Positions 14,309 to 63,909 of a DNA stretch of 64,000 nucleotides are shown piece after piece. Numbering within the stretch: position 1 is the stretch's first letter; each line of letters starts with the position of its first letter. The notes beneath the pieces are model-generated. The model was not told the DNA's origin. It ran no database searches and saw only the letters and a program-made list of their open reading frames with translations. The stretch is from Mustelus asterias (Eukaryota), in contig NC_135808.1 in NCBI RefSeq assembly GCF_964213995.1, forward strand, positions 74,462,001 through 74,526,000. The letters run 5' to 3'. The position numbers and the translations under genes are program-made.

Positions 14309-15232
14309 GTAACGCCTCATTTCCATAATGCATTTTGTGACAAATGCTTAACAAATGCAATCTTGTGTTTTACGGACAGCATTTAAATGCTTAAATTTTT
14401 AAGCAGTTAATTTTGCTCTGGTGCGGGTTTGTGCATGGTGCAGGTTAAGTTGCTGGAAGGTGCACGGCTGGAATTACTCTGTACGTTGCTGACAATGTAG
14501 ACTGGCAAAGCTGTAGGAATACATTAGGTGCAGTGCTTAAATAGCAGAGGGGAAACAGTGGTCAAGGTGAAATGTTCAGCATTTTATAGCAGAAACCAGT
14601 CCCATCTGGTCTGTCCTTATTTAAGATCTGCTGAATCTTACGGTTGGGTCTCAGGTGGGTATTTGTACTGCCTGAAGCGGGTAGGCGTTTTATTACCGTC
14701 GACATAAGGGTTGGGAATGGTTCATGATTATTTCCAATCACATGAACTGTGCAGCAAGTCTCCAGTGCATCCTACAAAAGCTGACAACAAGGCCTAGCTA
14801 CTCTTGCAGGTGAGAGGGCTTTAAAATGGCTCATACATGTTGAAGGTAAGTGCATTCAATCTTTTAGATGACTCTTTTGTAGTTTTCTTTTTAATCAGTT
14901 CTGGGTTTTCATGATCTTTTGTGTTAGGTGCAATTATTTACTGATTTTGCCCAGGATTTCCTTCATTGGCAACAGAGGATTTGGCACCAGGAAATGTTTG
15001 CTGAGATGCTTGGAGGGAAAAGGAAACATGTGAAAGATGGCTAGTCAGATCAGACTGTACAAGAGTGGCTCTGTGCTTTTCCACACCACTTATACACCCC
15101 AGCATCTGTGGAGAGAAGTAGCCAAATTCACCTTGGCAATGTTTTACAGTTTGGAACCATCAGGCAAATGGTATACTTGAGATGCTTTGAAGAACATTTT
15201 AGTTTCTGCATGTGAACATGACTCAATAGTCA

Positions 15233-16386
15233 TGTAGAAGCATCGGGTTCCAATAACTGGCAACTAGAGGCTAAAAACAGTCGATGTTTATTAACAGTAA
15301 CTGAGCAGCTCTTGCATGCTGTCCGCCTGCACTCCGGGAAAACCCCCAAGCTGCTGTCATGTGATCCCAGTCTGTATCTGCGCCATTCCAACATCCACAT
15401 GACCACCCAGTCTACATCTTCTTCATTTAAGTTGGGAGAGCCTGTAGTACTGAGGTGTAACAATATAGTAGAATAGTCACAAGTATGAACTATTTACGAC
15501 ATATAAAATTAAACTGGGCTAACAACACCTGACTACTTATAACGTGCAGAATACCGATTAGGCTACAGCAACTGGTGCATTGCCCATCGCCTCTCCTTTC
15601 CCCTCCTTTTAGAACACAGTCCATTCATAGATGAGTTCATCACATAGTCCTTGAACATTGTATTTGGTTTATTCGTGTGCCCTGAGTAAGTGATTAGACC
15701 AGTTGGGCGTGCTTGACATGCCCTCGGGTTGATATTTTCAGTGTAAATGGCATCAGGTGTTGTGGCATACCCTGAGGCTGCAGGGCTTGCTGCAGTGGCC
15801 CCTGAAGGGGCCTTCATTTCAGCAGTATTTCAGGATCCTCCTCCTCCATTTGGAAACAAAGGACTTGTATTCCTCAACCGCCTCAGGACCCACTAAATAT
15901 AGGAGTCTGTACACTTGTACCTCTTTGATTTGTCCAAAAGGCTGGCACCACAGTAGATATGACGCTCTTTTTCAAATTTTGTCCAGTTGTCTGAGATGAT
16001 TTTGTCACAGTAAGGAGTCTAACAACACCAGGTTAAAATCCAACAGGTTTATTTGGTAGCAAACACCATGGTGTTTACCCCAGTCCAACGTCGGCATCTC
16101 CACATCATGATTTTGTCAAACACGAGCGGCTCAATGCAGCAAGTGGCCATTCTGTCAATTCCTGAAACCATGCAGAGGTACTGGGTTCCAATACCTGGCG
16201 CCCGGGGACTAACAACAACTGATGTTTATTAACAGTAACTGTGCAGCTCTTAAAGCCTGTGCTCTGGGAGAAATCCTGCACAACTGACATGTGACCCCTT
16301 TTGTATCCACGTCATCGCAGCATTCACATGACCACCTAGTCTACAAGTCACTTCGATAATACTAGTCACTTGTTAGTGCTGTCGCA
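15233..16386 (-). mobile_element. Internally deleted, decayed Gypsy (Mag-like) LTR element
   Basis: Diverged direct repeats starting at 15233 and 16171; minus strand ...TGCA|TGGTTTCAG (PBS), gag start MATCCIEPLVFDKIISDNWTKFEKE...QVYRLLYLVGPEAVEEY, integrase-tail-like KDYVM, purine tract AAAAGGAGGGGAAAGGAGAGG before the 3' LTR. Confidence 0.6.
16008..16106. mobile_element. Penelope-derived mini-insertion with inverted 5' part, 12-bp TSD
   Basis: ATGATTTTGTCA at 15996-16007 and 16107-16118; 16008-16068 inverted, 16071-16106 direct. Confidence 0.85.
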
Positions 16387-59224: not shown

Positions 59225-59431
59225 GTAAAGTTGCTAAAAAGGTTTTTGATGGCAGGAAAATGTTACACTGGCACAATTGCGAGTGCTGTCATGAGGTTTG
59301 AACTCTCAGAATCGCAGAGTGGTAATTTGAGCAGTCATGTTACACTTGTTTTGCTCACTCTGGTGACCCGATTCAACAAAGTTTGAATGATTTGATCCCC
59401 AGGTTTCCATCCAGTTAATAACCTGAACGTA

Positions 59432-59672
59432 TGATGCCCTATCAATCAAGCAAAGACTAGTTTGTATGCAAAAACAAATAGGCTTTTATTTGCAAAAGAC
59501 TTGGAGCACACCCTTGCTGATGAACTGGTCCGGCGACTGAGGCAGAGGGGTTGGGAGCAGTGACCTTTATACCTGGACCGGGGGGGGAGGAGTCTCAGGC
59601 AGGGCCGGCAGGGGCATGCCCAGGCATGTCACACACACACACAGACAATAAGCTTAACAGTGGTTTACCACA
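59432..59672 (-). repeat. 3' LTR (241 bp, TG...CA)
   Basis: Direct repeat of 63516-63756, about ten substitutions and two 1-nt indels by eye; TATAAA at 59566-59571 on the minus strand. Confidence 0.95.
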
Positions 59673-59744
59673 TTCACCCCCTGCTTTTAAAAAAGAGTCC
59701 GGCGGGGGTGAGGTGGGTGGAACGATATTTACAGAATTACAAAT

Positions 59745-62700
59745 TTACAAATTCAATCTCTCTGGGGGCTTGATCTGCCGCTGCGACCGCTGTAGTGCCG
59801 GTTGTGGTGTCGGTTCCGGTGGCCGCAGTGTTGGTTCAGGCGCCAGGCTGGAGTCGCTCGAGTCGTCTGTAGTCCCTTCCGATTGTCGGGTGCGTGGTGG
59901 CGGCTCCTGGGGCTCAGGCGTGCTGTATACGGGGGTTGGGGGTGTGGGGTTGCAGGTCATCGCGGTCCCTGGGGCACCTGCGGGTGCCAGGTTTCGAATG
60001 GAGACCATGTCCTCCCTCCCGTTGGGGTACGCCACGTAGGCGTATTGGGGGTTGGCGTGGAGGAGCTGGACCCTTTCGACCAGTGCGTCCGACTTATGGG
60101 TCCTCACGTGCTTCCAGAGCAGCACAGGGCCTGGGGACGTCAGCCACAACGGTAGTGAGGTCCCCGAGGAGGACTTCCTGGGGAAAACAAACATCCTTTC
60201 ATGAGGGGTAGCATTGGTAGCTGTGCAAAGGAGTGATCTAATCGAGTGTAGTGCATCAGGGAGGACCTCTTGCCAGCGGGTGACTGGAAGACCTTTAGAC
60301 CTCAGAGCTAGTAAAACGGCCTTCCAGACTGTCGCGTTCTCCCTCTCTACCTGTCCATTCCCCCTGGGTTGTAACTGGTGGTCCTACTCGAGGCTATACC
60401 TTTGGAGAGCAGGTACTGTCGCAGCTCATCACTCATAAAGGAGGATCCCCGGTCGCTATGGATATAGCTAGGGAAACCGAACAGGGTGAAGAGGCTGTGC
60501 AGGGCCCTGACGACCGTGGCCGAGGTCATATCCGGGCAGGGAATAGCGAAGGGGAAACGTGAATATTCGTCAATGACGTTGAAGAAGTATATGTTGCGGT
60601 CAGAAGAGGGGAGGAGGCCTTTGAAGTCGACGCTTAGGCGTTCGAAAGGGCGGGTGGCCTTTATGAGGTGTGCTGTGTCTGGCCGATAGAAGTGCAGCTT
60701 GCACTCTGCGCAGACCTGGCAGTGTCTGGTTATAGACCTGACTTCCTCAATGGAGTAGGGCAGGTTACGGGCTTTAATGAAGTGAAAAAACCTGGTGCCC
60801 CCCGGGTGGCAGAGGTCGTTGTGGAGAGTCTGCAATTGGTCTATTTGTGCACTGACACATATTCCCCGGGACAGGGCGTCTGGGGGCTCATTGAGCTTCC
60901 CGGGCCGGTATAAGATGTCATAATTGTAGGTGGAAAGCTCGATTCTCCACCTCAATATTTTATCATTTTTGATCTTGCCCCGCTGCGTGTTGTTAAACAT
61001 GAATGCAACTAACCGTTGGTCCGTGAGTAGGGTGAATCGTTTACCAGCTAAGTAGTGGCGCCAGTGCCGTACAGCTTCCACTATGGCTTGGGCCTCCTTC
61101 TTGACAGAGGAGTGTCGAATTTCAGGGCCTTGGAGGGTTCGTGAGAAGAAGGCCACGGGTCTGCCCACCTGGTTAAGGGTGGCGGCTAGGGCGAAGTCAG
61201 ATGCATCACTCTCCACCTGGAACGGGATGGAGTCGTCTTCAGCATACATCGTGGTCTTTGCGATGTCTGCTTTGAGGCGGTCGAAGGCCAGGCGGGCCTC
61301 TGCCGCCAGGGGAAAAGAGGTGGATTTGATGAGCGGACGGGCTTTATCCGCATAATTGGGGATCCACTGGGCGTAATACAAGAAGAAGCCCAGGCATCTC
61401 CTCAGTGCTTTGAGGCTGGTGGGGAGGGGAAGTTCCAGGAGGGGACGCATGCAGTCGGGATCGGGACCGATGAACCCGTTTTCCACAACACAACCAAGGA
61501 TGGCGAGGCGGCGTGGGCGGAATACACACTTCTGCTTATTATAGGTCAGATTTAGGAGTGTGGCGGTGTGGAGGAATTTGTGGAGGTTGGCGTCGTGGTC
61601 CTGCTGATCATGGCCGCAGATGGTGACATTATCCAGGTACGGGAAGGTGGCCCACAGCCCATTCTGGTCTACCATTCGGTCCATCTCACGCTGGAAAACT
61701 GAGACCCCGTTGGTGACGCCGGAGGGGACCCAAAGGAAGTGATAGAGGCGGCCATCCGCCTCGAAGGCAGTATATTGGCGGTCTTCCGGGCGGATAGGGA
61801 GCTGGTGGTATGCAGATTTTAAGTCGATGGTGGAGAACACCCAATATTGCGCAATCTGATTAACCATGTCAGATATGCGGGGAAGGGGGTACGCGTCCAG
61901 CTGCGTGTAGCGGTTAATGGTCTGACTGTAGTCAATGACCATGCGATGTTTCTCCCCAGTCTTAACAACTACTACTTGGGCTCTCCAGGGCTGGTACTGG
62001 CCTCGATAATCCCCTCCCCAAGGAGCCGTTGTACTTCGGACCTGATAAAAGCCCTGTCTCCAGCACTGTACCGTCTGCTCTTGGTGGCGATGGGCTTGCA
62101 GTCGGGGGTGAGATTTTCAAACAGTGAGGGAGGGGCGACTTTAAGGGTCGAGAGGCTGCAGGTGGTGCGCGGTGGGCGATCTAAGAACTGGTGATTGCAA
62201 ACAGAGAGTGGGGGAAAAGGCCCATTATACTCCATGGTGACGCTCTCAAGGTGACACAGGAAATCTAGCTCCAGGAGTACGGCAGCGCAGAGTTGTGGCA
62301 GCACGAGGAGCCTGAAGCTTTTGTACACTGTGCCCCGTACAGTCAGGGTCGCCACGCAGTACCCGAGGACATCCACCGAGTGGGACTTTGAAGCCATGGA
62401 GATCGTTTGCTTCACTGGCAGTACTGAAAGGGCATAGCGACTCACTGTGTTAGGGTGAATAAAGCTCTCCGTACTCCCACAATCAAATAAACAGTTTGTA
62501 GTGCGACCGTTTACCTCGATGTCCATCATGGACCTGGCGAGTTGGTGAGGCCTGGATTGGTCCAGCATAACCAAAGCCACCGTTGGATTTTGCGACGCGG
62601 CTGACGGCCTCCAAGATGGCGGCCCGCACGGCTCACACGCGGCTACCGGCGCCCCAGATGGCGGCCCCCGCGGGTCGCACGCGGCGCGACTGGGCTTGGA

Positions 62701-63491
62701 GGTCGACTTCGCCCTGCATACCTTCGCGTAATGGCCCTTCTTTCCACACCCGGAGCAGATCGCATCCTTCGCCGGGCAGCGTTGTCGGGGGTGCTTCCCC
62801 AGGCTGCAGAAGTAGCACTTCGGACTTCCAGAGACTGCCGCAGCGGTTGGGTCATTGGTGGGACGTGACGTGGCGTGGCGTAGGCCTGCGGCCCTCCTGA
62901 GTACAGAGGTGGTGGCGGCGACTGCGGCGTCCACGATGCGCCCCCGTGGTCGGGGGTGTAGGCCTCGAGATTACGGAAGGCCACCTCTAACGAGTCGGCA
63001 AAAGCTACAGTCTTTTGTAGATCCAGCCCACCCTGTTCCAGCAGTCGTTGCCGGATGTAGTTTGACCTGATAATCAGAGATGCCTATGTCATGACTAAGT
63101 CCTCAGTGTTTTGGGCGGCTGTTACGGCCTTGCAGTTGCAGGCCCTGCCAAGTGCTCGCAACGCACGCAGGAATTGGTCGCCCGATTCTCCTGGCTGTTG
63201 TCTGCAAGTAGCCAGAAGATGTCTGGCGTAGATTACATTAGTCTGTTTGTTGTACTGGCCTTTTAAAAGTTCGATCGCATCCTCGTAAGTTTCAGCGTCT
63301 CTAATCATCGAGAATACTTGATCGCTTAGCCGGGCGTGGAGCACGTGTAGCTTGTCGGTTTCGGTCCAGACGACGGAGGCGGAGGCAGTGAGGAAAGTTT
63401 CGAAACATCGCAGCCAGTGATCGAAGCTGTTAGAGGCTCCTACGGCTTGAGGATCCAATTCTAATCTATCGGGTTTTAGTATCTGCTCCAT
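59745..63491 (-). pseudogene. gag-pol of the Gypsy element, disrupted by a micro-inversion stop and frameshifts
   Basis: ORF pieces 63084-63491, 61972-62934, 60347-61942, 59745-60194. Confidence 0.9.
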
Positions 63492-63515
63492 CCCAAAACT
63501 TTTTGCGAATAAAAT

Positions 63516-63756
63516 TGATGCACTATCAATCAAGCAAAGACTAGTTTGTATGCAAGAACAAATAGGCTTTTATTCGCAAAAGAATTGGAGCACACCCATG
63601 CTGATGAACTGGTCCCGGCGACTGAGGCAGGGGGGTTGGGAGCAGTCACTTTCATACCTGGACCGGGGGGGAGGAGTCTCAGGCAGGGCCGGCAGGGGCA
63701 TGCCCAGGCATGTCACACACACACACAGACAATAAGCTTACCAGTGGTTTACCACA
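63516..63756 (-). repeat. 5' LTR (241 bp)
   Basis: TGTGGTAAACC...GATAGTGCATCA on the minus strand; TATGAA 63651-63656, TCAGT 63621-63625, AATAAA 63569-63574. Confidence 0.95.
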
Positions 63757-63909
63757 ACGTAATGACCACTGTGCTCTCTTTGTAGAATCTCCTTCCACTA
63801 TGAGGCAGCTTCTCTAGAAATTTGTAAACTAAAGCCCAACTCAGAAATGACAGTCCATGTTGAATTCTGAATGGAAATCTAGTTCCTGCACAGTTATTGA
63901 GGATCTTGT

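Follow-up and report, generated by a model that had tools for sequence, protein, structure and literature searches.

Next to the 5′ LTR of a Ty3/Gypsy retrotransposon of the shark Mustelus asterias, at the primer-binding site (PBS) position, lies a 14-nt sequence without TGG that is perfectly complementary to a segment of the LTR itself. That segment includes the AATAAA poly(A) signal. The LTR-PBS pairing is confirmed as a real feature: an alignment of the two 14-mers, proposed as a check by an earlier reading of this DNA from its letters alone (the sequence-only reading), gave compensatory changes across families, within one family and in distant relatives. What the covariation demonstrates is pairing rather than priming, and it does not tell which copy is the source of the primer. 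We regard self-priming of some form as very likely. A fuller model, in which the 5′ copy provides a primer that is internal to the RNA and cut behind the hexamer while the 5′ poly(A) signal is masked, appears reasonably probable.

Structure of the element and of its priming region

The window, that is, the whole stretch of M. asterias DNA analysed, is 64,000 nt long. On its minus strand, a 4.3-kb Ty3/Gypsy element spans positions 63756-59432, with 241-nt LTRs and a 5-bp target-site duplication (TACGT) whose left and right copies lie at 63757..63761 and 59427..59431. Alignment of the 5′ LTR (63516..63756, TG...CA) with the 3′ LTR (59432..59672) gave 230 identities, 10 mismatches and 2 gaps, and this alignment, together with the TACGT duplication flanking the element, fixes the LTR end independently at 63516. 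The terminal CA at 63516 is followed by a single A (63515), a spacer that is unpaired with the base following the primer, and then by the PBS (63501..63514). Read on the minus strand, 63514-63501 is TTTTATTCGCAAAA, the exact reverse complement of TTTTGCGAATAAAA at 63581-63568. The latter segment (63568..63581) is the putative self-primer; its 14 nt end 3′ in AATAAAA. The gag ATG begins at 63491, 24 nt past the LTR. The sequence-only reading had described a PBS without TGG that perfectly complements 14 nt of the element's own LTR including AATAAA, a 1-nt spacer and a gag ATG at this distance; the exact match was verified by coordinates, and the spacer and the ATG are as it claimed. In the 3′ LTR, the primer segment (59497-59484) differs by one base from that of the 5′ LTR and has no PBS partner downstream.

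Such a match is rarely reached by chance. When the LTR was shuffled (mononucleotide shuffling), a 14-nt complement was seen in 0 of 20,000 trials, the maximum being 13 nt, obtained once. Random 24-mers of the window reached 14 nt in 3 of 20,000 cases, and AT-rich 24-mers in 0 of 20,000.

A single gag-pol region (59745..63491) covers gag, protease, reverse transcriptase (RT, with a YLDN motif), RNase H and integrase, without a chromodomain, and a polypurine tract (PPT; 59673..59688) adjoins the 3′ LTR. The order protease, RT, RNase H, integrase is that of Gypsy, all features of Ty3/Gypsy membership are present, and the best match of the element protein to a solved structure is Ty3 Gag-Pol. By protein comparison, the nearest named proteins are from sharks and rays; an atlas search with the element protein returned retrotransposon gag and nothing further. 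Two tandem CCHC knuckles are present in gag in four proteins (P0002-P0005) and at locus L407. In the search for a chromodomain, no Pfam family was found in the C-terminal frame of the window element, and the chromo family was absent from all seven proteins scanned, among which L155 reaches its stop codon and some others may be incomplete. The coding region of the window copy is disrupted by a stop near 63085 and by several frame changes.

The element lies antisense among many exon-sized frames on the plus strand of the window (12500-59300). All four frames tested gave weak fibronectin type III matches, under the curated cut-off, and the frames recur as 88-98% identical blocks every 10-30 kb. 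We read this region as a host gene that has undergone recent internal duplications. A tandem array with an 11-nt period extends over several hundred bases from about 42400. At about 15200-16350, on the minus strand, a pair of LTR-like segments with roughly 80% similarity is separated by about 930 nt. TGGTTTCAG follows the first of them, and the pair is perhaps a small non-autonomous or deleted element. For the decayed element that the sequence-only reading had placed at 16170 and called Mag-like, TGGTTTCAG does follow an LTR-like segment with an approximately 80% similar twin, but no coding match bears out the label.

Covariation of LTR and PBS across the genome

A DNA query of the M. asterias genome returned 1,841 candidates for the LTR/PBS junction, and a degenerate LTR-end/PBS pattern had 2,442 exact matches, against 0 for the reversed control. 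The copy set comprised 312 loci, 298 with a gag start and five without a PBS call; exclusion of non-shark loci and merging of duplicates left 276 copies from about ten families, which form nine multi-copy groups and eleven singletons. The PBS pairs with the copy's own LTR at 12 or more of 13 positions in 249 of the 276 copies, as opposed to 6.4% when LTR and PBS were taken from different families; the other 27 copies mismatch at two or more of the 13 nt. The way in which copies were found biases positions 1-7, because the PBS caller sought TTTTATT/TTTTAAT and 90 loci came from a pattern containing the first PBS bases. The fair test is therefore given by the unselected positions 8-13, at which 5.64 of 6 bases match the own LTR, compared with 3.08 across families.

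Both strands have changed together. The variable part reads, in LTR and PBS respectively, GCG/CGC, GCT/AGC, GTG/CAC, ATG/CAT or CAC/GTG, and in one family the hexamer itself is changed to ATTAAA and the PBS changes accordingly. The spacer A faces a G after the primer, a non-pairing combination, in 267 of 276 copies. Among 21 hand-picked representatives, 98.2% of cells pair and changes on both sides are seen in 11 of 14 pairs, a result that none of 500 shuffles matched, slid controls giving 39-51%. One row of this alignment is misaligned and two are offset by one base, so that covariation in the hexamer columns is overstated. RNAalifold returned the central LTR-PBS helix as the sole helix for these representatives. 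A 5-bp target duplication was called in 70 of 92 two-LTR copies, and none was called at 4 or 6 bp. At one locus (L144), a self-pairing family is inserted beside or within another of the same clade, giving two LTR-PBS junctions in 3 kb.

The tRNA question

No TGG site was found near the LTR end in any of the 276 copies. In the control, made up of other Gypsy lineages of the same genome, TGG sites were present in 15 of 18 LTR pairs and the self-complement was at most 8 nt (20 loci, two of them without an LTR pair; three boundary calls missed the LTR end). Comparison of the PBS with 38 tRNA-like sequences from the fetched loci, mostly Thr, gave a best real match of 5 nt, in keeping, within this small sample, with the absence of a tRNA primer site that the sequence-only reading had proposed. 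One longer tRNA match proved to be a false ARAGORN call, with a 605-nt intron placed across an element's own PBS. More telling than this comparison, the PBS changes with each LTR, including three alleles in one family, and no single tRNA could do the same. Covariation, the 0/276 count for TGG and a chromodomain that was not found together support self-priming in a non-chromovirus lineage, as had been suggested; priming itself is what we infer from them.

A young and larger Gypsy family of the genome (L393-L405, L408, L411), with ORFs of up to about 2,000 aa, has its TGG preceded by four or five T past the LTR end, which is a long spacer for a tRNA PBS.

Alleles within one family and discordant LTRs

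In a sister family of 87 copies, one middle base of the primer is G, C or T, and PBS and 5′ LTR agree in 81 of the 87. A variant found in both LTRs will have been inherited by way of reverse transcription; of 22 such cases, 20 show the compensating change in the PBS, representing about six independent events, a pattern that fits copying of the primer into the next PBS. The alleles mostly track gag lineages, and for this reason primer copying is not separated from selection acting on a few double changes. In 28 copies the two LTRs are discordant in the primer segment; here the PBS is closer to the 3′ LTR in 16, closer to the 5′ LTR in 11 and tied in 1, so the adjacent (5′) copy is not favoured as the source of the primer. 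In L198/L203 (probably one duplicated copy), L204, L294 and L299, the 5-bp duplication is intact and the two LTRs carry different bases at several lineage-marking sites, the primer allele among them. These mixed-LTR copies fit two different RNAs per particle with intermolecular transfer, or gene conversion.

Distant relatives and clade position

Three non-shark relatives (L154, L155 and L157) share 53-66% pol identity with the shark element, and each has, one base past the CA of the LTR, a 13-14-nt self-complement ending on AATAAA(A) or ATTAAA. Both LTRs are present in L157. The assemblies of L154 and L155 are circular, with the LTRs collapsed into one, and for these two the LTR ends were taken from the PPT and the CA. 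In L157 (3384-3576), the LTR contains two AATAAA hexamers and the PBS pairs with the upstream one; the downstream hexamer may be the working poly(A) signal. These three loci, like the others in the L156-L162 range, are Gypsy elements on contigs filed as bacterial genome bins, and the contigs are probably animal DNA, present as host contamination. The nine genome-contig loci comprise three usable clade members, two clade-like loci without a 5′ end, one of 270 nt and three of another lineage. Viral contigs contained no relatives with DNA context, and metagenome contigs gave three copies of one decayed locus lacking LTRs.

In a quick RT-RNase H tree of 46 rows, the element belongs to a single long-branch clade (SH-aLRT 100), distinct from three other lineages. 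The clade contains shark, ray, coral, Trichinella, leafhopper, tapeworm and fluke proteins as well as L154, L155 and L157; the PBS was observed in the M. asterias genome and the three loci, the named non-shark hosts being represented by proteins alone. In this tree the clade is separate (SH-aLRT 100) from the TGG-primed group of L409/L410 and kin, a group that may be Mag-like by its motifs. Mag-type gag carries a double CCHC. As a refinement of the sequence-only reading, the likeness to Mag appears confined to gag, with its two CCHC knuckles; the polymerase stands in a separate long-branch clade, away from the genome's TGG-primed lineages.

Promoter motifs and predicted position of the primer in the RNA

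A TATAAA/G motif occurs in every one of the nine multi-copy groups, 31-34 nt upstream of an initiator-like A, and the distance from the initiator to the primer end is 50-55 nt in eight groups and 64 nt in the ninth. In the window copy, the TATA box position is at 63650..63656 and the initiator-like TCAGT at 63621..63625, with a predicted RNA start, from motif spacing, at A63623, 33 nt past the T of the TATA motif. The sequence-only reading had placed a TATA at 63656 and TCAGT at 63623. The position of the former stands, with the sequence being TATGAAA in the 5′ LTR and TATAAAG solely in the 3′ LTR; the latter is present, its coordinates being 63625-63621 with its A at 63623. The prediction is accordingly that about 40 nt of RNA precede the primer, which would occupy +43 to +56 in the window copy. 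Its location internal to R, also part of the earlier reading, is backed by the conserved TATA/initiator spacing and keeps the status of a prediction. In L155 the LTR is short, only about 59 nt of it lying upstream of the primer, so in that locus transcription may begin close to the primer. Poly(A)-tailed retrocopies ending after the hexamer were not found, nor, in the window's family, was any copy beginning at the predicted cut; both results are uninformative either way.

Predicted folding of the leader

In folding predictions for the 92 two-LTR copies, the unpaired fraction of the hexamer was 0.06 in its 5′ context against 0.55 in the 3′ one, and the hexamer was less unpaired at the 5′ than at the 3′ end in 90 of the 92. 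The 5′ signal would be hidden and the 3′ signal left accessible because the partner strand, the PBS, exists at the 5′ end alone. Folding thus backs the suggestion of the sequence-only reading that the hairpin could hide the 5′ poly(A) signal, again at the level of a prediction. Strand transfer would allow any primer end within R that spares enough bases for it, so the constant end on the hexamer calls for a further explanation, the simplest of which would be masking of the 5′ poly(A) site.

A second helix is predicted between the LTR and the start of gag. Its LTR strand in the window is TGCTCCA (63586..63592) and its gag strand TGGAGCA (63484..63490), which overlaps part of the ATG. The underlying motif, G(C/T)TCC, lies immediately upstream of the primer, and its pairing with the start of gag is predicted in 233 of the 255 copies having both motifs. 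Covariation in this helix is scant: 5 copies, from two lineages, combine a GAA second codon with T in the LTR motif, and in 4 scattered copies the pair is broken; the gag strand of this helix is also constrained by protein coding. The entire leader is modestly more stable than its shuffles (z -1.74). Single-sequence folds gave a variable inner helix together with an outer helix that uses upstream LTR sequence.

Proposed mechanism and alternatives

We propose that the primer would be the element's own LTR stretch ending in the poly(A) signal, released by a predicted cut just behind AAUAAA(A), probably by the element's own RNase H. If the RNA starts about 40 nt upstream, the primer would form the 3′ terminus of a capped leader about 55 nt long, as opposed to the first 11 nt in Tf1. 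The 5′ copy would fold on the PBS, and a cut past the A run would leave a paired 3′-OH one base from the LTR end. RT would then copy U5 and the short rest of R before jumping to the 3′ end, and for this strand transfer it would use just the stretch that separates the hexamer from the poly(A) site. By hiding the 5′ poly(A) signal and leaving the 3′ one accessible, the same duplex would account for the primer's constant end on the hexamer; the second helix, lying across the gag AUG, may distinguish a form of the RNA for translation from one for packaging. Finally, plus-strand synthesis would copy the primer into the new PBS and in this way keep both sites in step.

Where the primer comes from can be seen differently within self-priming. 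It could be supplied by the 3′ copy of R through circularisation, by a partner RNA, or by a short capped R-only RNA, arising from early polyadenylation or from solo LTRs and trimmed to the duplex. We think such another source unlikely, while noting that it predicts the same covariation. Among the discordant copies, the 16 of 28 in which the PBS is closer to the 3′ LTR speak for it, as do the at least four copies in which an intact 5-bp duplication encloses LTRs of two lineages, and the fixed end on the poly(A) signal could reflect 3′-end processing. However, the split of 16 to 11 is nearly even and mostly a matter of later mutation, and the 5′ copy is about 52 nt from the PBS, with near-full pairing predicted in cis. 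Poly(A) cleavage normally occurs 10-30 nt past AAUAAA. Given that distance, a primer made by 3′-end processing would require extra trimming. Less probable still, and in our view improbable, is a plain Tf1-type arrangement, in which transcription would begin at or just before the primer and the primer would be the first 13-16 nt of the RNA. It would be compatible with the short LTR of L155, and all experimentally studied self-primers in the available text of bioRxiv 10.1101/2022.12.06.519325 are at the RNA 5′ end; yet in shark LTRs that have otherwise diverged, a TATA motif and an initiator, at a textbook distance from each other, are retained 50-55 nt ahead of the primer end, and the predicted helix with the gag start, which involves a conserved motif upstream of the primer, needs upstream RNA.

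A purely regulatory hairpin, which would mask the 5′ poly(A) site while a protein or an unrelated RNA primed, seems to us slightly more improbable again. The hexamer always lies inside the paired segment, masking specific to the 5′ end is predicted in 90 of 92 copies, and HIV-1 provides a precedent in the available text of PMC2645353. On the other hand, the duplex ends one base from the LTR end in the shark copies and the three distant relatives, exactly where a primer must end, no alternative primer site is present, and 6-9 variable bases outside the hexamer stay paired. In LTR elements, the priming site sets the end of the LTR, and it is for this reason that the duplex stops where the end of the primer must sit. 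Priming by a host tRNA fragment, or a match that is a functionless by-product at the DNA level (inverted-repeat correction), is in our judgement very improbable. The by-product reading has to contend with pairing kept among elements with 53-66% pol identity, and the tRNA reading with a PBS that changes family by family with the LTR and whose best real match among 38 tRNA-like sequences is 5 nt, even though that sample was small and half-tRNA primers are known in Copia elements, as the available part of PMC6317226 describes. We therefore retain self-priming from the 5′ copy as the working model.

Comparison with known elements

In the accounts of Tf1 available to us, the RNA's initial 11 bases anneal to the PBS and RNase H cleaves between bases 11 and 12 (PMC7175516), Tf1/sushi elements have a chromodomain, a primer at the RNA 5′ end and a pretzel fold (bioRxiv 10.1101/2022.12.06.519325; PMC4600332), and about half of the Tf1 cDNA carries a PBS copy at its 3′ end (PMC11042837). 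As far as these texts describe them, Tf1/Tf2 of Schizosaccharomyces pombe, Tj1 and the Tf1/sushi chromoviruses are like the shark element in domain order, in having no tRNA site and in a PBS complementary to their own LTR RNA, and the shark element probably shares the Tf1 chemistry, that is, a cut by RNase H at the end of an RNA duplex. By the same accounts, its primer is different: 13-16 nt long, predicted to be internal and ending on the poly(A) hexamer, in contrast to the first 11 nt in Tf1. So would be the outer helix, which in the shark element is predicted to join the LTR upstream of the primer to the gag start, whereas both flanking helices of the three-duplex Tf1 pretzel, as described there, use the LTR downstream of the primer. 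The shark element also lacks the chromodomain of Tf1/sushi and has a gag with two CCHC knuckles. Because no chromodomain was found, we do not file it in Tf1/sushi.

Self-priming has also been predicted, in the available part of PMC6317226, for plant Tcn1 and for Copia TAR elements. The plant Ty1/Copia elements TAR, Houba and Osr-1 resemble the shark element in that this prediction falls outside the chromoviruses, and hence self-priming outside Tf1/sushi is not new as such; they belong to another superfamily and kingdom, and in that part of the text the primer is not tied to the poly(A) signal. Skipper is described as having a non-tRNA site without an LTR complement (PMC5006619, as available). 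In HIV-1, pairing over AAUAAA in the polyA hairpin represses 5′ polyadenylation, according to the available text of PMC2645353; the HIV hairpin is contained within R and so occurs at both ends, whereas the partner strand in the shark element is the PBS, is present at the 5′ end alone and probably makes the hairpin double as the priming duplex.

Mag and the Cigr-1/Tor2/MolGy clades are similar to the shark element in being compact single-ORF elements with short LTRs, and the size and LTR length of the shark element presumably resemble those of Cigr-1 of Ciona. Unlike the Mag lineage, the shark element has no tRNA-type TGG PBS (0/276), and with its RT motifs SPWRAQV and YLDN it stands in a clade apart from the TGG-primed lineages of the genome. 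The main text of two surveys of these clades (PMC6238403, PMC8556966), as available, does not mention the PBS. The flatworm elements Saci2 and lennie, likewise Gag-Pol fusion Gypsy elements with a variable PBS, were considered as possible relatives, flatworm proteins lying inside the shark-element clade. The descriptions of Saci2/lennie available in PMC12471100 and PMC4558846 give 4-bp target duplications and a tRNA-matching PBS, which set the shark element apart with its 5-bp duplications (70/92) and no TGG; membership was rejected, and Saci2/lennie are probably a different clade. In the literature covered, which mostly did not extend to subscription journals and Repbase reports, we found no publication on self-priming in a non-chromovirus animal Gypsy clade, and none on a primer ending on the poly(A) signal.

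Significance

What the window adds is the depth of covariation within one genome, the coupling of three alleles, a conserved promoter spacing and a predicted helix over the AUG. A broader proposal, which we hold tentatively and rate a little below even, is that a widespread non-chromovirus clade of animal Gypsy elements has independently evolved tRNA-free priming, with an internal capped primer cut behind the poly(A) signal, a triple RNA switch and a PBS rewritten in each cycle. If this is true, the clade would span sharks and rays and, by protein, coral, a nematode, an insect and flatworms; one RNA switch would serve three ends, releasing the primer, shutting off the 5′ poly(A) site and covering the gag start codon; and the LTR would rewrite the PBS every cycle. 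Self-priming has so far been studied in one chromovirus lineage, with a primer at the RNA 5′ end. A second Gypsy lineage, abundant in a vertebrate genome and with an internal primer coupled to the poly(A) signal, would bear on whether tRNA-free priming is ancestral or arose repeatedly, as well as on the way in which LTR elements avoid using their 5′ poly(A) site. Annotation tools that demand a tRNA PBS would miss or mis-annotate self-primed elements, and such elements would presumably escape silencing by tRNA fragments.
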